Source: Escherichia coli
GTDB taxonomy: Bacteria > Pseudomonadota > Gammaproteobacteria > Enterobacterales > Enterobacteriaceae
Assembly: GCF_003790525.1 (NCBI RefSeq)
Contig: NZ_CP033635.1
Direction: 5' to 3' (one strand)
DNA: 64,000 nucleotides
In this document: positions 7,269-60,370 of the stretch, piece after piece
Layout: each line of letters begins with the position of its first letter
Position numbering within the stretch: the first letter of the stretch is position 1
The notes under the pieces: model-generated
Databases searched by the model: none
Told to the model about the DNA's origin: nothing
What the model saw: the letters and a program-made list of their open reading frames with translations, nothing else
Made by a program: the position numbers and the translations under genes

Positions 7269-8444
7269 TTAATGCAATCCAAAAACGTTCAACATGGTAG
7301 AAAGTTTGACGCCCGTTTCGCGCCACTCACCCAACGGTGACGACGCAGGCACAATCCCCGCTCCGGCAAACAGACGCACCTGATTTTCCCGCAGCTTCGC
7401 GCAGCGGATGGTCACAACCCATTCGCCGTTACCTTCGCTGTCACACCAACCCACAATGCCGCCAAACAGTTCGCGGTCGAACGGCTCCAGTTCAGCAATA
7501 ACCTGGGTCGCGGCCTGATGCGGGAAACCGCTCAGCGCGGGGGTCGGATGCAGCAGACAGGCCAGAGTCAGTGCGTTTTCTTGCGAATTCGCTTTACCTT
7601 CAAAGGGAGTTGCGAGATGCCACAGCGTCGGCGTGGTAATCAATTGTGGAGAGGAAGGAACGTTTAACTCACTGCTGCGTTCTCGCAGTACCTCTTTCAT
7701 CGCCTGAGTCACCAATTCATGTTCATGACGATCTTTTTCTGAGGCCAACAGACGATTACCCGCTTCGCGATCGAGCACTTCATCCGGCTGACGACGCGCG
7801 GAACCGGCTAACGGAATGGAGCTAAAACGCTCGCCGTCTTTACGTAGCAGCAGCTCCGGGCTGGCCCCCAGCAGAACGCCACCATCAGCCAGCGGGACAT
7901 GGAAGTTGTAACTAACCGGGTTTTGTGCAATCAACCGTTCCAGCAATACGCCACTATCAATGGCGGCGTCAGTGGTGATATCAATCAACCGTGACAACAC
8001 CACTTTGTCGACCTGCGGCGTGGCGGTAAGTGCGGCGGCGCGGGCAACCATCTGTTCAAACGTGGCTTGTTGCGGAATTGCCTGACGTTCCACCACGTTC
8101 AGCGACTGGCTGCGGGTGAAACGGCGTGCGGAAGCTTGTTTTTCCTGACGGGAGAACGACAGCCAGGATTCGGGAATATACAGCGACGAAGGCTGACGTG
8201 GATCGAAGGGAATCGCCCCGACCATCACCGGATTTTTGATGCCCTGCGCTTTGGCATCGGCAAACAACGCGGCGAGTTTTTGCTGGAAGGGACTGTCGGG
8301 CGAATCCCCGTTCACAGCCGGTTCATCGAAGCGGGCGAAACATCCTGACGTCGTAAAACTGCGGTACGGCGACATAAAGAAAAAGCGATTGGGCGCAAGT
8401 GTTGCCATGGTCTGCTGTACTTCCTCAGCCAGTGACGTATCCAT
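7269..8444 (-). CDS. entC: Isochorismate synthase
   Basis: Protein starts MDTSLAEE four codons inside the listed ORF; matches remembered EntC; first gene of the entCEBAH operon. Confidence 0.93.
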
Positions 8445-8471
8445 ATCATCCTCCACAAAATGATAAAGGCT

Positions 8472-8492
8472 TTAATAATGATTATCATTTAT
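8472..8492. promoter_or_regulatory. Fur box in the divergent entC / fepB promoter region
   Basis: Sequence TTAATAATGATTATCATTTAT closely matches the Fur consensus GATAATGATAATCATTATC and lies between divergent iron-regulated genes. Confidence 0.7.
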
Positions 8493-8632
8493 ATTTTCGG
8501 TCGCTAACCTAAAAGCAAACGCGCACTATGTCAACTCTTGAGGTAACGCAATCTGCAACTCGGGGTTGCATCTGTTTGTGATTACAATGAAAATGAGAAG
8601 CATTAACTCTATTAATAACAGGAAGCTAATTT

Positions 8633-9589
8633 GTGAGACTCGCCCCGCTCTACCGCAACGCCCTTCTATTAACAGGACTTTTGCTTTCAGGAATAGTCGC
8701 AGTTCAGGCCGCCGACTGGCCGCGTCAGATTACTGACAGCCGGGGCACTCATACCCTGGAAAGCCAGCCGCAGCGTATTGTTTCCACCAGCGTCACCCTG
8801 ACTGGCTCACTGCTGGCGATTGATGCTCCGGTGATCGCCAGCGGCGCGACCACGCCGAATAACCGCGTCGCGGATGACCAGGGCTTTTTACGCCAGTGGA
8901 GCAAGGTGGCGAAAGAACGCAAACTGCAACGGCTCTATATCGGCGAACCGAGTGCAGAAGCCGTTGCCGCGCAAATGCCGGATCTGATTTTAATTAGCGC
9001 AACCGGCGGGGATTCGGCGCTGGCGCTGTACGATCAGCTTTCTACCATCGCCCCAACATTAATCATCAATTACGACGACAAAAGCTGGCAGTCGCTGTTA
9101 ACGCAGCTTGGCGAAATTACCGGGCATGAGAAACAAGCGGCAGAGCGGATTGCACAGTTTGATAAGCAACTGGCGGCGGCGAAAGAGCAAATCAAATTAC
9201 CGCCGCAGCCGGTCACTGCCATTGTCTATACCGCCGCTGCACACAGTGCCAATCTCTGGACGCCGGAATCAGCACAAGGGCAGATGCTGGAACAACTCGG
9301 CTTTACGTTGGCGAAATTGCCCGCAGGGTTAAACGCCAGCCAAAGCCAGGGCAAACGCCATGACATCATTCAGCTTGGTGGAGAAAATCTGGCTGCAGGG
9401 TTAAATGGCGAGTCACTATTCCTGTTCGCTGGTGATCAGAAAGATGCCGATGCGATTTATGCCAATCCACTGCTCGCGCACCTGCCCGCAGTACAAAACA
9501 AGCAGGTTTATGCGCTGGGAACCGAGACGTTCCGCCTGGATTACTACAGCGCCATGCAAGTGCTGGAACGACTTAAGGCGCTGTTTTAA
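8633..9589 (+). CDS. fepB: Periplasmic ferric-enterobactin binding protein
   Basis: 318-aa ORF with a signal peptide and apparent GTG start; matches remembered FepB. Confidence 0.92.
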
Positions 9590-9592
9590 GCA

Positions 9593-10843
9593 TTAACTGT
9601 CGGACGCTGTCATCTGCGGCGGCGTCTGGCGAAAACGTCGCAACTCCACCAGCACCAGCAATAACAACACGCCGATAATCAACAAACCAAAACCGCTCGC
9701 GCTTGCGGAAGCAACCGGTGTCATCATCGCGCCCAAACCGCCCAGCAGCGCTGCGCCTATGGCATCGCCCGTCACGTTTTGCGCCGTCCACAAACCGTTA
9801 ATCCGCCCTAACATCGCTTCCGGGGTTTGCGTTTGCAGCATTGTATATTGCAGCAACGAACTAACCGCGCTCAACCAACCGAACAGCGCCAGGCAAACCA
9901 CGCCTAAAATCCACATCGGCATCAGGCCAAACAGACCAATGGCAAGGAACGATCCCAGCGTGGAGAGCAGCATCAATAACCCTGGTCGCGCACTATGTGC
10001 CAGCTTCCCGCTGGTTAACGCGCCAATAGCCGCGCCGAGCGGAATCGCCGCATAGAGAAAACCAATCTGTGCCGCCGACATCTGCCAGTTGTCAGCCAGC
10101 GCCGGATACAGGACCCGCACCGCGCTCGCCATCGTCAATAAACCACCCAGCAACGCAATCCCTCCCACCAGCGGGCTGGCGAGTAGAAAACGAAATCCTG
10201 CCAGTAATGATTTCAACGGATGCTCACGCGGCTGCGGCGGTGGTGGCAACGCCGGAAGGCTTAACAACGGTAGCAAGGTAATAAACGTGCCCGCCGCCGC
10301 CAGTCCGTAGTTCCAGGCTACGCCTCCGGTCGCCAGCAATAAACCGCCAATCATGGGCGAAATCACCGATCCCAGACGCACGGTCAACATGGTGATCGCC
10401 CCGGCCTGCATTAAGTTTTCACGCCCTACCAGTGCAGGTGTCGCCGCCAGTAGCGCCGTAACGCCAAGCGATGCGAAAAAACCATCCCATAAACCAAGTA
10501 AATATATTGCCAGCAATGACGGCTCCGGCAGCAGCGCGTTCAGGCACAGTCCAATGAAGCCAATGCCACAGGTGCCGCGCGCCAGCAAAATCACTTTTTT
10601 GCGCTCATAGCGATCCGCCAGCACACCGCCGACCATCAAACCGACAAACATCGCCCCGCCGGTCAGCGTCACCGAAAGCCCCACCTGCCAGGTAGAATGC
10701 GTCATCATCTGGATCTGCACCGGCACCGCGACGCCGAGCAAACCCAGAGAAACAATAGAGATAAAACGAGCGAGGAATACTGCGCGAAACGCCGGGTGCG
10801 TTTTCAACAGGCTGAGGTTAAGCAGCCAGGATTGTTTATTCAT
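9593..10843 (-). CDS. entS: Enterobactin exporter (MFS)
   Basis: 416-aa polytopic membrane protein; matches remembered EntS (YbdA); convergent with fepB. Confidence 0.93.
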
Positions 10844-10914
10844 TACAATGCCTTGCCATCAAATATTTTAAATACCTATTCTTAGGCTGCACATGCTAAC
10901 ATATCCAAATAAGA

Positions 10915-10941
10915 TCGATAACGATAATTAATTTCATTATC
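10915..10941. promoter_or_regulatory. Fur box in the divergent entS / fepD promoter region
   Basis: GATAACGATAATTAATTTCATTATC directly upstream of the fepD start; Fur-consensus-like hexamer repeats. Confidence 0.6.
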
Positions 10942-10953
10942 ATGGAAGTTCGT

Positions 10954-11958
10954 ATGTCTGGTTCTGTTGCCGTGACACGCGCCATTGCCGTGCCCGGATT
11001 GCTGTTATTACTGATTATCGCGACGGCATTAAGCCTGCTCATTGGAGCAAAATCACTCCCCGCTTCCGTAGTGCTGGAGGCCCTCTCCGGCACCTGCCAG
11101 AGCGCCGACTGCACCATCGTGCTCGACGCACGACTGCCGCGCACCCTTGCCGGTTTACTGGCAGGCGGTGCGCTTGGCCTTGCCGGGGCGTTAATGCAAA
11201 CCCTCACCCGAAACCCACTTGCCGATCCTGGTTTGCTTGGCGTGAACGCCGGTGCCAGTTTTGCCATTGTGCTGGGTGCGGCGCTGTTTGGTTACTCTTC
11301 CGCACAGGAACAACTGGCGATGGCCTTCGCCGGGGCGCTGGTGGCCTCGTTGATTGTTGCCTTTACCGGCAGCCAGGGCGGCGGGCAGTTAAGTCCGGTG
11401 CGTTTAACCCTGGCGGGCGTGGCGCTGGCGGCGGTGCTGGAAGGGCTGACCAGCGGCATCGCCCTGCTTAATCCTGACGTCTACGATCAACTGCGTTTCT
11501 GGCAAGCCGGTTCACTGGATATTCGTAATTTACACACCTTAAAAGTGGTGCTGATCCCGGTGCTGATCGCCGGAGCAACTGCGTTATTACTGAGCCGTGC
11601 ACTGAACAGTTTGAGCCTTGGCAGTGACACCGCGACGGCGCTGGGCAGCCGCGTGGCGCGCACACAGTTGATTGGTCTGCTGGCGATTACCGTGCTTTGT
11701 GGTAGTGCGACGGCGGTAGTTGGCCCGATTGCCTTTATTGGCCTGATGATGCCGCATATGGCGCGCTGGCTGGTAGGTGCCGATCATCGCTGGTCGCTGC
11801 CCGTCACGCTACTTGCCACCCCTGCCCTGCTGCTGTTTGCCGATATCATCGGGCGGGTGATTGTGCCCGGCGAGTTACGCGTTTCTGTGGTCAGTGCGTT
11901 TATTGGCGCACCGGTGCTGATCTTCCTCGTGCGACGTAAAACGCGAGGTGGCGCATGA
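10954..11958 (+). CDS. fepD: Ferric-enterobactin ABC transporter permease
   Basis: FecCD-family permease. Start taken at MSGSVAV (334 aa) as I recall the K-12 annotation; an in-frame ATG at 10942 (MEVRMSG) is the alternative. Confidence 0.9.
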   Translation: MSGSVAVTRAIAVPGLLLLLIIATALSLLIGAKSLPASVVLEALSGTCQSADCTIVLDARLPRTLAGLLAGGALGLAGALMQTLTRNPLADPGLLGVNAGASFAIVLGAALFGYSSAQEQLAMAFAGALVASLIVAFTGSQGGGQLSPVRLTLAGVALAAVLEGLTSGIALLNPDVYDQLRFWQAGSLDIRNLHTLKVVLIPVLIAGATALLLSRALNSLSLGSDTATALGSRVARTQLIGLLAITVLCGSATAVVGPIAFIGLMMPHMARWLVGADHRWSLPVTLLATPALLLFADIIGRVIVPGELRVSVVSAFIGAPVLIFLVRRKTRGGA

Positions 11959-19202: not shown

Positions 19203-20405
19203 TCAACTCCTGTCATGGAAAAGTGGTTGCCAGAGGTCGATTAGCCCCTGCATCAAGCCACCGCGCCAACAAAGCGCATCATGTCCGCCGTCAACCTGAC
19301 GCCAGAAAATGGATTCTTTTAGGGGGTGTAATTGCGCATACAGCGCCTGATTGGCCTGCATGATCATCGGCTCGCGAACACCCGCTTCCAGCACAATGCG
19401 CAGACCTTCGGCGCTAACTTCACCAGTATTTAGCTGTTCAAGTAACATGCCCTCTTGGTGCCCGCCCCGATGCGGCCACCAGTACGAGCCTGACTGGCTT
19501 AATACACAGCCAAAGCGTTCAGGCCAGTGCAGTCCGGCATACAGCGCGGAAAGCCCACCAAAACTCTGTCCGGCGACCACGGTGCGATCGGCGCGATCGC
19601 TAAAAGGGGCAATAGCTTTCACCTGGGGTAATAACTCTTGCTGTACTGCCAGCCAGAAATCCGCATTACACGGCAGTTCGTGGGCGCGGTGCGTGGTGTC
19701 GATAGCGTCGATCAACACATACACGGCGGGCGGAAGTTGCCGACGATGGGTCAGCGAAGTCAGCGCAGGCCAGACGGGCATACTCTGCGCCCAAAATTCG
19801 CCATCAAGCAAAACTGCCAGCGGGCGTTCTTCTGCTGTTGCATCGCCGGTGGTAAAAATCCATACACGGCGTGAATTTTTCAACCGTTCACTTTTCCAGA
19901 TAATTTCTTTGGCAGGCGTTTCTGGCGCTTGCGGACAATCCCATCCCGGTTGCAGAGGCGCTTGCGGCATTTCGAGTGCAGAAACAGCGTGCCCTCGCCC
20001 GCCTTTCCAGCTTTGTGGATTCAGCGGATCGGCTATCGCCTGGGGTAATAGTTTTCGCCAGCCTTCGCGTAATTCGAGGCGATCGGGGGATGGTGCAGAA
20101 AAAATGTCATCGCGTTCGGTAGGAATAAAGCAGTAGCTGCCGCGCCAGTTGGCATTGAGTTGTGTCGTCCACTGCCAAACATCGGTTCCTGCAATTCGCT
20201 GCATCGACCGGGGCTGGCTGTTCTGATGGTGATCGGTCATGCCAGTGATATAGACCCATACGCGCTTTATCGTCGAGTGGCCTTCAGAACCTTGTGGATC
20301 ACGCCACCAGAAAGTGACCTCAAACATTTCGTCATTCAGACGTTGCCATTCCGGGCCATGTTTCGACTGCCACCAGCTCTCACTTCCTACTTTTAACGCC
20401 GTCAC
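19203..20405 (-). CDS. fes: Enterochelin (ferric-enterobactin) esterase
   Basis: 400-aa ORF with an esterase GQSFGG motif; matches remembered Fes. Confidence 0.93.
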   Translation of the reverse strand: MTALKVGSESWWQSKHGPEWQRLNDEMFEVTFWWRDPQGSEGHSTIKRVWVYITGMTDHHQNSQPRSMQRIAGTDVWQWTTQLNANWRGSYCFIPTERDDIFSAPSPDRLELREGWRKLLPQAIADPLNPQSWKGGRGHAVSALEMPQAPLQPGWDCPQAPETPAKEIIWKSERLKNSRRVWIFTTGDATAEERPLAVLLDGEFWAQSMPVWPALTSLTHRRQLPPAVYVLIDAIDTTHRAHELPCNADFWLAVQQELLPQVKAIAPFSDRADRTVVAGQSFGGLSALYAGLHWPERFGCVLSQSGSYWWPHRGGHQEGMLLEQLNTGEVSAEGLRIVLEAGVREPMIMQANQALYAQLHPLKESIFWRQVDGGHDALCWRGGLMQGLIDLWQPLFHDRS

Positions 20406-20450
20406 ACCATAACCCCATGTTTACTGTGCAATTTTTTATTGATTGCAGAA

Positions 20451-20490
20451 ATATATTGATAATATTATTGATAACTATTTGCATTTGCAA
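20451..20490. promoter_or_regulatory. Fur-binding region of the divergent fes / fepA promoters
   Basis: ATATATTGATAATATTATTGATAACTATTTGCATTTGCAA contains overlapping GATAAT-type Fur hexamers between divergent iron-regulated genes. Confidence 0.65.
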
Positions 20491-20647
20491 TAGCGTAATG
20501 GCGCGCCGTGGGAAGCGCGGACATTAATTAATCAGCTGCACTGCGTGTCTTTCAGGATCAAAGGTTTTCGCGGTAGCGGGATGCGTCGTGTTGATGACGA
20601 CCATGCCCGACAGTTGCAATTCGTGGCAAAAATGCAGGAATAAAACA

Positions 20648-22888
20648 ATGAACAAGAAGATTCATTCCCTGGCCTTGTTGGTCAATCTGGGGATTTATGG
20701 GGTAGCACAGGCACAAGAGCCGACCGATACTCCTGTTTCACATGACGATACTATTGTTGTTACCGCCGCCGAGCAGAACTTGCAGGCGCCCGGCGTTTCG
20801 ACCATCACCGCAGATGAAATCCGCAAAAACCCGGTTGCCCGCGATGTATCGGAGATTATCCGTACCATGCCTGGCGTTAACCTGACCGGTAATTCCACCA
20901 GTGGTCAGCGTGGTAATAACCGCCAGATTGATATTCGCGGCATGGGTCCGGAAAACACGCTGATTTTGATTGACGGCAAGCCAGTAAGCAGCCGTAACTC
21001 AGTGCGTCAGGGCTGGCGTGGCGAGCGCGATACCCGTGGTGATACCTCCTGGGTGCCGCCTGAAATGATTGAACGTATTGAAGTTCTGCGTGGTCCGGCA
21101 GCTGCGCGTTATGGCAACGGCGCGGCGGGCGGCGTGGTTAACATCATTACCAAAAAAGGCAGCGGTGAGTGGCACGGCTCCTGGGATGCTTATTTCAATG
21201 CGCCAGAACATAAAGAGGAAGGTGCCACCAAACGCACCAACTTCAGCCTGACCGGTCCGCTGGGCGACGAATTCAGCTTCCGCTTGTATGGCAACCTCGA
21301 CAAAACCCAGGCTGACGCGTGGGATATCAACCAGGGCCATCAGTCCGCGCGTGCCGGAACGTATGCCACGACGTTACCAGCCGGGCGCGAAGGGGTGATC
21401 AACAAAGATATTAATGGCGTGGTGCGCTGGGACTTCGCGCCTCTGCAGTCACTCGAACTGGAAGCGGGCTACAGCCGCCAGGGTAACCTGTATGCGGGTG
21501 ATACGCAGAACACCAACTCTGACGCTTACACTCGCTCGAAATATGGCGATGAAACCAACCGCCTGTATCGCCAGAACTACTCGCTGACCTGGAACGGTGG
21601 CTGGGATAACGGCGTGACCACCAGCAACTGGGTGCAGTACGAACACACCCGTAACTCGCGTATTCCGGAAGGTCTGGCGGGCGGTACTGAAGGGAAATTT
21701 AACGAAAAAGCGGCACAGGATTTTGTAGATATCGATCTTGATGACGTGATGCTGCACAGCGAAGTTAACCTGCCGATTGATTTCCTCGTAAACCAAACGC
21801 TGACGCTGGGTACAGAGTGGAATCAGCAGCGGATGAAGGATTTAAGTTCCAACACCCAGGCGCTCACCGGGACGAATACCGGCGGCGCTATTGATGGTGT
21901 GAGTGCCACCGACCGTAGCCCGTATTCAAAAGCAGAAATTTTCTCGCTATTTGCCGAAAACAATATGGAGCTGACTGACAGCACCATCGTAACGCCGGGG
22001 CTGCGTTTCGATCATCACAGCATTGTTGGCAATAACTGGAGTCCGGCTCTAAACATATCGCAAGGTTTAGGTGATGACTTCACGCTGAAAATGGGCATTG
22101 CCCGCGCCTATAAAGCGCCGAGCCTGTACCAGACTAACCCGAACTACATTCTCTACAGTAAAGGTCAGGGCTGTTACGCCAGCGCGGGCGGCTGCTATCT
22201 GCAGGGGAACGATGACCTGAAAGCGGAAACCAGTATCAACAAAGAGATTGGTCTGGAGTTCAAACGCGACGGCTGGCTGGCGGGCGTGACCTGGTTCCGT
22301 AACGATTATCGCAATAAGATTGAAGCGGGCTATGTGGCTGTAGGGCAAAATGCGGCTGGCACCGATCTCTATCAGTGGGATAACGTGCCGAAAGCGGTGG
22401 TTGAAGGTCTGGAAGGATCGTTAAACGTACCGGTTAGCGAAACGGTGATGTGGACCAATAACATCACTTATATGCTGAAGAGTGAAAACAAAACCACGGG
22501 CGACCGTTTGTCGATCATCCCGGAGTATACGTTGAACTCAACGCTGAGCTGGCAGGCACGGGAAGATTTGTCGATGCAAACAACCTTCACCTGGTACGGC
22601 AAGCAGCAGCCGAAGAAGTACAACTATAAAGGTCAGCCAGCGGTTGGACCGGAAACCAAAGAAATCAGCCCGTACAGCATTGTTGGCCTGAGCGCGACCT
22701 GGGATGTGACGAAGAATGTCAGTCTGACCGGCGGCGTGGACAACCTGTTCGACAAACGTTTGTGGCGTGCGGGTAATGCCCAGACCACGGGCGATCTGGC
22801 AGGGGCCAACTATATCGCCGGTGCCGGTGCGTATACCTATAACGAGCCGGGACGTACGTGGTATATGAGCGTAAACACTCACTTCTGA
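20648..22888 (+). CDS. fepA: TonB-dependent outer-membrane ferric-enterobactin receptor
   Basis: 746-aa protein starting MNKKIHSLALLVNLGIYGVAQA (signal peptide) with a TonB box and a C-terminal aromatic residue. The listed ORF has a 20-codon upstream extension. Confidence 0.95.
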   Translation: MNKKIHSLALLVNLGIYGVAQAQEPTDTPVSHDDTIVVTAAEQNLQAPGVSTITADEIRKNPVARDVSEIIRTMPGVNLTGNSTSGQRGNNRQIDIRGMGPENTLILIDGKPVSSRNSVRQGWRGERDTRGDTSWVPPEMIERIEVLRGPAAARYGNGAAGGVVNIITKKGSGEWHGSWDAYFNAPEHKEEGATKRTNFSLTGPLGDEFSFRLYGNLDKTQADAWDINQGHQSARAGTYATTLPAGREGVINKDINGVVRWDFAPLQSLELEAGYSRQGNLYAGDTQNTNSDAYTRSKYGDETNRLYRQNYSLTWNGGWDNGVTTSNWVQYEHTRNSRIPEGLAGGTEGKFNEKAAQDFVDIDLDDVMLHSEVNLPIDFLVNQTLTLGTEWNQQRMKDLSSNTQALTGTNTGGAIDGVSATDRSPYSKAEIFSLFAENNMELTDSTIVTPGLRFDHHSIVGNNWSPALNISQGLGDDFTLKMGIARAYKAPSLYQTNPNYILYSKGQGCYASAGGCYLQGNDDLKAETSINKEIGLEFKRDGWLAGVTWFRNDYRNKIEAGYVAVGQNAAGTDLYQWDNVPKAVVEGLEGSLNVPVSETVMWTNNITYMLKSENKTTGDRLSIIPEYTLNSTLSWQAREDLSMQTTFTWYGKQQPKKYNYKGQPAVGPETKEISPYSIVGLSATWDVTKNVSLTGGVDNLFDKRLWRAGNAQTTGDLAGANYIAGAGAYTYNEPGRTWYMSVNTHF

Positions 22889-22927: not shown

Positions 22928-23025
22928 GCCGGATGCGGCGTGAACGCCTTATCCGGCCTACAAAAATCTTGCCAATTCAATATATTGCAGGATAGTGTAG
23001 GCCTGATAAGCGTAGCGCATCAGGC
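22928..23025. repeat. BIME: two inverted REP palindromes between fepA and entD
   Basis: GCCGGATGCGGCGTGAACGCCTTATCCGGCCTAC (22928-22961) and the inverted GTAGGCCTGATAAGCGTAGCGCATCAGGC (22997-23025) are canonical E. coli REP sequences. Confidence 0.75.
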
Positions 23026-25152: not shown

Positions 25153-25305
25153 CTACTTCTTCGGTTCGTAAGCGAGAACAGCCTTAAACTCAATATTACG
25201 TTCCTTCACCGTAAACTCACACAGCGAGTCTCCGACCAGAAGCGTAAATCCCAGCACCGTCAAACACAGCACTATGACTGCCACAAGGGCATATTTCGTC
25301 AGCAT
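25153..25305 (-). CDS. hokE: Hok-family type I toxin (small membrane peptide)
   Basis: 50-aa peptide [50 protein letters not shown], typical Hok/Gef. The listed 88-aa ORF is an in-frame upstream extension. Confidence 0.85.
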
Positions 25306-25737
25306 GTTTATATTGCCTCCATGCGAAGAAGGGACTACCATCCAAATTGTTCGGGTTTGGAGTGGCAGCCCCAGGGTTGATAGAAATATCTCCTGGGGCT
25401 TCATCTTTCCAGACCTCAAAGTTAACCTGAAACCGGAAAGCTTCAGGCACCCGCCGTTATCTTACCCTTCCTCAACAAAATAGCTGTTTATTTATACAGT
25501 AAATCCTGTTTCGGACTTCTCACTCCCCATTTGATCAACTGAAGCTGAACCCGTTTTTATCTGCACGCCTCAATCGTCAAAATTCTTCGCCGCCAGCCAA
25601 CTATGACGCAACTGGTCACATTGCAAAATGTAGCCAATTTGCTTCAGTCACCATCACCAAAAAAAGAAATATTCCAGAACTTCCGCATCTCGCCCAGTCG
25701 CTCCCACTTCTATACTGAATAGAAAACGCCAACATAA

Positions 25738-60185: not shown

Positions 60186-60370
60186 GCCGCATGCGGCGTG
60201 AACGCCTTATCCGGCCTACCGTTCCAACACCGACTGTAGGCCTGATAAGATGCGCCAGCATCGCATCAGGCATGGTGTGCCGATTGCCGGATGCGGCGTG
60301 AACGCCTTATCCGGCCTACCGTTCCGACACCGCCTGTAGACCTGATAAGACGCGCCAGCATCGCATCAGG
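60186..60370. repeat. BIME: four REP palindromes in alternating orientation downstream of purK
   Basis: REP units at about 60186-60219, 60235-60270, 60286-60319 and 60335-60370, i.e. an approximately 100-bp unit repeated twice (GCCGGATGCGGCGTGAACGCCTTATCCGGCCTAC and GTAGGCCTGATAAG..CATCAGGC). Confidence 0.75.

Follow-up and report, generated by a model that had tools for sequence, protein, structure and literature searches.

The enterobactin genes in the window, the whole 64,000-nucleotide stretch of Escherichia coli DNA that was analysed, include three divergent promoter regions carrying Fur-like repeats, raising the question of whether these repeats are operators of the ferric uptake regulator (Fur) or what AT-rich promoter DNA would be expected to contain. 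Gene coordinates were taken from the RefSeq annotation of E. coli SMS-3-5 (NC_010498.1, reverse strand), to which the window is 100% identical and in which the locus coordinate equals the window coordinate plus 8001. Since entC ends at 8444 and fepB begins at 8633, the interval flagged for study, 8445-8632, is exactly the entC/fepB intergenic region (Table 1). An earlier sequence-only reading had placed there a Fur site matching the consensus at nearly every position, with weaker ones at entS/fepD and fes/fepA.

Table 1 Genes, intergenic regions, Fur-related features and conserved blocks of the three divergent ent/fep regions (window coordinates).
Feature	Position	Strand	Length	Remarks
entC	7269-8444	-		RefSeq annotation
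Conserved block	8442-8453			Start codon and Shine-Dalgarno sequence
entC/fepB intergenic region	8445-8632		188 bp	
entC Fur footprint equivalent	8450-8498			49/49 identical to K-12 624054-624102
Conserved blocks	8458-8468, 8474-8499			entC Fur cluster; most conserved of the region (62 species)
entCEBAH primary Fur site, TTTAATAATGATTATCATT	8471-8489			Centre 8480; 36 bp upstream of entC ATG
Conserved block	8505-8512	-		TAGGTT
Predicted entC promoter	8506-8534	-		-35 TTGACA (8534-8529), 17-bp spacer, -10 TAGGTT (8511-8506)
Conserved block	8529-8536	-		TTGACA
Conserved block	8566-8572			TTGCAT
Predicted fepB promoter	8566-8594	+		-35 TTGCAT (8566-8571), 17-bp spacer, -10 GAAAAT (8589-8594)
Predicted fepB Fur operator	8583-8613			Equivalent of 31-bp K-12 footprint 623939-623969
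Conserved block	8588-8607			GAAAAT and fepB Fur sites
fepB	8633-9589	+		RefSeq annotation
entS	9593-10843	-		RefSeq annotation
entS/fepD intergenic region	10844-10953		110 bp	
fepDGC/entS Fur footprint equivalent	10904-10972			69/69 identical to K-12 621394-621462
fepD	10954-11958	+		RefSeq annotation
fes	19203-20405	-		RefSeq annotation
fes/fepA intergenic region	20406-20647		242 bp	
fes/fepA Fur footprint equivalent	20450-20497			48/48 identical to K-12 611868-611915
fepA	20648-22888	+		RefSeq annotation

Motif scores and K-12 footprints

A symmetric 19-bp Fur weight matrix was built from 15 validated K-12 Fur sites, none of which lies in the ent cluster (gpmA, ryhB, sodA, fecI, fecA, fhuF, cirA, fhuA, exbB, sufA, bfd, mntH, fiu, nohA and fadD). 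The training sites, positioned from the gene-relative centres that Chen et al. 2007 list in their Table 4 (PMC2189734), gave leave-one-out scores of 16.7 to 29.0 bits. Scoring of all 63,982 positions of the window placed the three reported ent/fep sites at ranks 1-3, with 26.0 bits at 8471-8489, 20.8 bits at 10920-10938 and 17.1 bits at 20467-20485. By comparison, the maximum in whole-window dinucleotide shuffles (n = 200) was 12.0±2.7 bits (95th percentile 17.3, largest 20.6), and four sites of at least 15 bits were observed in the window versus 0.145 expected from these shuffles. Local dinucleotide shuffles, 5000 per intergenic region, reached the observed score in fractions of 0.0002, 0.0006 and 0.0012 at entC/fepB, entS/fepD and fes/fepA (p = 0.0012), respectively. 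The weight-matrix check that had been proposed for the three regions therefore gives scores above background in each, with the site claimed for the entC/fepB promoter being the best in the window and the related ones following directly. Taken alone, the 17.1-bit fes/fepA site reaches only about the 95th percentile of the whole-window shuffle maxima; what makes it significant is its location, together with the outcome of the local shuffles and the identity to a footprint.

The consensus models gave a similar picture with some differences in rank. Against the 7-1-7 Fur consensus, the 15-mer at 8473-8487 (TAATAATgATTATCA) scores 13/14, which no other position in the 64 kb reaches, and 20469-20483 scores 11/14. 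In a whole-window scan with the classical 19-bp consensus, the four best matches all fell inside ent intergenic DNA, led by 10923-10941 (16/19, the best 19-mer in the window) and followed by 8474-8492, 8589-8607 and 10917-10935 (15/19 each). The wording that the entC/fepB site matches at nearly every position thus holds for the 7-1-7 model and is slightly generous for the 19-mer at 8474-8492. Likewise, the sites at entS/fepD and fes/fepA are indeed weaker under the weight matrix or the 7-1-7 models, whereas under the classical 19-bp consensus the entS/fepD site is the better one (16/19 versus 15/19 at entC). Elsewhere in the window, an sfmH/fimH-like fimbrial adhesin gene contains two Fur-like matches, 47837-47855 (15.8 bits) and 47853-47871 (10.2 bits), which lie where the AT content of the window peaks (local shuffle p about 0.003) and are probably chance or non-regulatory intragenic sites.

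Chen et al. 2007 list the published DNase-I Fur footprints of K-12 in their Table 3 with NC_000913.2 coordinates (PMC2189734), which allowed a position-by-position comparison with the window. Identity was complete over the entC, fepD-entS and fepA-fes footprints (Table 1), in support of the claim that all three divergent regions carry iron-repressor sites fitting the known regulon, and amounted to 24 of 31 positions at fepB, where the first 23 bp are identical and the last 8 bp are changed because the K-12 insertion described below follows window position 8605. The matrix centres at 8480, 10929 and 20476 map exactly onto the coordinates of the strongest sites of Chen et al. (624072, 621437 and 611889), for which scores of 23.1 (entC), 20.1 (fepD-entS) and 18.7 bits (fepA-fes) were given (PMC2189734), so that both analyses agree on the order entC > fepD/entS > fepA/fes. 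In the genome-wide K-12 scan, all three clusters rank within the 42 strongest (PMC2189734).

Outside the footprints the three regions differ from K-12 to varying extents. In the K-12 fepB-entC region (Brickman, Ozenberger and McIntosh 1990, cited and tabulated in PMC2189734), the entC operator is the same as in the window and two separate Fur-protected regions are present, both of which have equivalents here. The entC-side half is identical from 8445 to about 8572, whereas the K-12 intergenic region measures 374 bp as against 188 bp in the window. For the fepDGC-entS (ybdA) operator (Christoffersen 2001; Lavrrar 2002, cited in PMC2189734), the 110-bp region is 100% identical with no detectable difference. 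The bidirectional fepA-fes operator, in the account of Hunt 1994 and Escolar 1998 given via PMC2189734 and PMC4676285, is likewise 100% identical over its 48-bp footprint, and the 242-bp region differs at three positions, all outside the footprint. In Klebsiella pneumoniae, a stretch of about 29 bp upstream of entC is protected by Fur, and an RcsAB site has been reported in the same promoter (PMC7298118); the entC box of the Klebsiella loci collected here lies at -35 to -37 and has a lower score (18.5 bits) than that of the window. ChIP-exo combined with expression data placed fepABCD and entBCEFS in the Fur regulon of nine of nine E. coli strains, a set that includes CFT073 and does not include SMS-3-5 (PMC10164565).

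Predicted promoters, operators and their conservation

Each operator consists of several sites. The primary entC site has one flanking site at a distance of 12 bp, 8459-8477 (9.4 bits), and another at 6 bp, 8477-8495 (12.8 bits). At fepDGC/entS, three sites are spaced by 6 bp, 10914-10932 (13.1 bits), 10920-10938 (20.8 bits) and 10926-10944 (4.5 bits), and at fes/fepA the sites are 20455-20473 (7.2 bits) and 20467-20485 (17.1 bits). The entC/fepB interval contains, in addition, a second predicted operator for fepB, of which the sequence-only reading made no mention, composed of two sites that overlap with a 6-bp offset, 8586-8604 at 8.4 bits and 8592-8610 at 9.4 bits, both scoring below the lowest leave-one-out training value of 16.7. 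Site centres at 8480 and 8486, at 8595 and 8601, at 10923, 10929 and 10935 and at 20464, 20470 and 20476 reveal the clustered, overlapping and 6-bp phased pattern that has been described for Fur (PMC2189734). In all three divergent regions the Fur sites adjoin or overlap conserved -10/-35 hexamers, with the start sites placed by prediction.

Because conserved promoter hexamers imply the start sites (Table 1), entC transcription is predicted to begin close to 8498-8499, on the border of the stretch protected by Fur, and that of fepB near 8601, leaving a leader of about 32 nt before the GTG at 8633. The two promoters would thus stand back to back, each operator covering its own start region, and the fepB operator overlaps the putative fepB -10 and start. 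The implied separation of the two start sites is about 103 bp, and Brickman et al. in 1990 reportedly arrived at the same 103 bp. A simple promoter scan had called ATGATA-17-TATCAT on both strands, on the Fur palindrome itself. As an entC promoter this candidate was rejected because transcription would then start within the Shine-Dalgarno region, and because TTGACA-17-TAGGTT, which is conserved, is the better fit. TACAAT at 8583-8588 was set aside as the fepB -10, being poorly conserved and having no -35 at usable spacing. A terminator-like hairpin, TGCAACTCGGGGTTGCA, followed by a T-rich run (8554-8570), lies between the two putative -35 hexamers, in what is presumably untranscribed spacer, and its right arm overlaps the conserved TTGCAT. 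At fes/fepA, a promoter-like TTGATT-18-TATTAT (20439-20468, plus strand) overlaps the footprint equivalent. An in-frame ATG at 10942-10944, 12 nt upstream of the annotated fepD start at 10954, falls within the Fur site cluster and the K-12 footprint equivalent.

Conservation was assessed in 77 Enterobacteriaceae loci, retrieved with a degenerate pattern from the conserved N-terminus of EntC and drawn from genera including Citrobacter, Enterobacter, Klebsiella, Salmonella, Kosakonia, Leclercia, Lelliottia, Pluralibacter, Kluyvera, Yokenella and Trabulsiella. The loci with enough upstream DNA to be scored represent about 70 species, and with a single exception the top Fur match, at 15.8-29.4 bits, fell at -30 to -40 relative to the entC ATG. 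The odd one out is a locus from Salmonella arizonae, where the intergenic region measures 308 bp and the site is at -158. Most loci also carry a second site, which has AATGCTTCTCATT as its core and lies 137-158 bp upstream of the same ATG. A phylogenetic footprint from the alignment of 62 distinct entC/fepB intergenic regions gave the conserved blocks of Table 1, in which the TTGACA and TAGGTT hexamers are conserved in about 100% of the 62 species and the blocks 8566-8572 and 8588-8607 at 90-100%. The conservation of the fepB operator could in part come from the overlapping -10 and start site and not from Fur contacts. At entS/fepD, 14 Citrobacter and Escherichia loci extend to the site, and every one of them places its centre 25 or 26 bp upstream of fepD; the single outgroup locus covering fes/fepA scores 24.1 bits there.

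At these loci we observe motifs that stand out from background, DNA identical to that footprinted in K-12, and sites that keep both their position and their sequence across genera; together these observations point to the flagged sites being, almost certainly, Fur operators of the enterobactin regulon. For the window strain, Fur binding, the promoter hexamers, the starts and the occlusion of RNA polymerase are elements that we infer or take from the literature. Under iron-sufficient conditions, Fe2+-Fur dimers would occupy the overlapping arrays of 19-bp sites with 6-bp spacing, which appear to lie over or just downstream of the -10/start-site regions of the divergent promoters, and bound Fur would block RNA polymerase; when iron is scarce, Fur would be released and the operons transcribed. 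The entC/fepB region is likely to hold two promoters with their own operators, a strong one centred at 8480 for entCEBAH and a weaker one at about 8598 for fepB, and entS/fepD (centre 10929) and fes/fepA (centre 20476) would have one cluster each, serving both directions. The ent/fep Fur operators are textbook biology, being among the founding examples of Fur regulation and identical here to the K-12 sequences that defined Fur binding. The earlier remark that nothing unexpected was seen is fair, and the result matters little beyond confirming that the annotation is correct.

The fepB leader and the BoxC insertion

The length difference between the K-12 and window entC/fepB regions is due to 186 bp that K-12 carries in the fepB leader, inserted after window position 8605 (8605/8606) and beginning about 5 nt into the predicted fepB transcript. 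A TTA duplication flanks the insertion, whose sequence folds as a long hairpin (-91 kcal/mol). It holds an inverted pair of BoxC motifs, which are nos. 7 and 8 (624579-624614 and 624676-624641) in Table 1 of the paper on BoxC/PIT/TMECO intrastrand-triplex repeats (PMC4666352), an element present in K-12 and absent from the window. Of 5426 complete E. coli genomes, 2725 have the insertion in the fepB leader. The entC/fepB region of CFT073 is, like that of the window, of the short 188-bp form and has the same fepB operator core, and the intergenic regions of other species mostly measure 172-189 bp. Since the insertion is missing from CFT073 and from the large majority of other Enterobacteriaceae species in the comparison, the short fepB leader of the window is ancestral.

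Insertion changes both the operator and the leader. Its end turns the distal operator AGAGTTAATGCTTCTCATT (9.4 bits) into ATCAATAATGCTTCTCATT (18.7 bits), and the leader is about 32 nt in the window versus about 220 nt in K-12. Because the end of the insertion alters the distal operator, the K-12 fepB footprint transfers only partly to the window strain. On the other hand, CFT073 has the short allele and fepB has been reported to be Fur-regulated there, which argues that the ancestral operator works. It is conceivable, though we consider it rather doubtful, that the K-12 fepB Fur operator, which has been footprinted and used for training Fur models, is partly built from a BoxC terminus and that the ancestral one is intrinsically weaker. 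If true, iron control and translation of fepB would differ measurably between two natural alleles, and the short-allele operator would be expected to have a Kd for Fur several-fold above the 8.6 nM reported for K-12. A literature search for papers linking the fepB leader to these repeats found none, and the BoxC-dependent allele difference is a minor, plausibly unreported nuance about the K-12 reference and not about the window. The K-12 fepB operator and leader used as reference represent a derived allele, which calls for caution in modelling Fur sites or fepB regulation.

Alternative readings and other elements in the window

It could be argued that AT-rich promoter DNA, with its TATAAT-like or UP-element sequences, yields such matches as a by-product, without their being specific repressor sites. 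The three intergenic regions are AT-rich, with a GC content of 0.31-0.42, the promoter scan called its ATGATA-17-TATCAT hexamers on the Fur palindrome, and a 15.8-bit match does occur within the AT-rich fimbrial gene (47837-47855). However, local shuffles preserving dinucleotides reached the observed scores in at most 0.12% of trials, only one of 2193 other AT-rich positions reaches 15 bits, the exact positions are conserved across genera and the DNA of the sites is identical to footprinted K-12 DNA, making such a by-product very improbable. AT-richness is also all that would favour primary binding by another AT-tract protein (H-NS, Fis or IHF) with Fur in a secondary role. The sequence TCGATAA at 10915-10921 is one that we take to resemble H-NS nucleation motifs. 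The palindromic 7-1-7 architecture and the 6-bp phasing speak against this reading, as do the Fur footprints on identical DNA and the membership of these genes in the core Fur regulon by ChIP-exo (PMC10164565), and we give it hardly any credence.

A narrower doubt, and the least improbable of the three, concerns fepB, whose short-leader site may be too weak to act as an independent operator, so that iron control would come mainly from elsewhere, namely from Fur spreading, from the entC operator about 115 bp away or from post-transcriptional control. Indeed, the two sites of 8.4 and 9.4 bits compare poorly with the 18.7 bits of the K-12 operator, whose distal part comes from BoxC, their local shuffle p is only 0.014, and the best fepB-side match ranges from 2.5 to 19.6 bits among species. 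Against this stand the 90-100% conservation of 8588-8607 in 62 species, the arrangement of two sites 6 bp apart as in other Fur clusters, the overlap of both with the putative -10 and start site, and the Fur regulation of fepABCD in nine of nine strains including CFT073 with its short allele (PMC10164565). A fepB promoter controlled mainly from elsewhere is thus unlikely, and we retain the reading in which fepB is served by an operator of its own.

A search against Rfam gave no RNA family for the three ent/fep intergenic regions. Elsewhere in the window it identified the sRNA family ES036 (CssrF) at 22963-23004 on the plus strand (44.4 bits, gathering score 37.6), sitting in the fepA-entD spacer directly past the fepA stop codon, the sok antitoxin RNA of the hokE locus (25297-25452, minus strand), a tRNA at 46894-46967 on the minus strand, corresponding to the tRNA-Arg annotated between fimZ and envY, and naRNA4 (CssrE) at 60239-60316, also on the minus strand.
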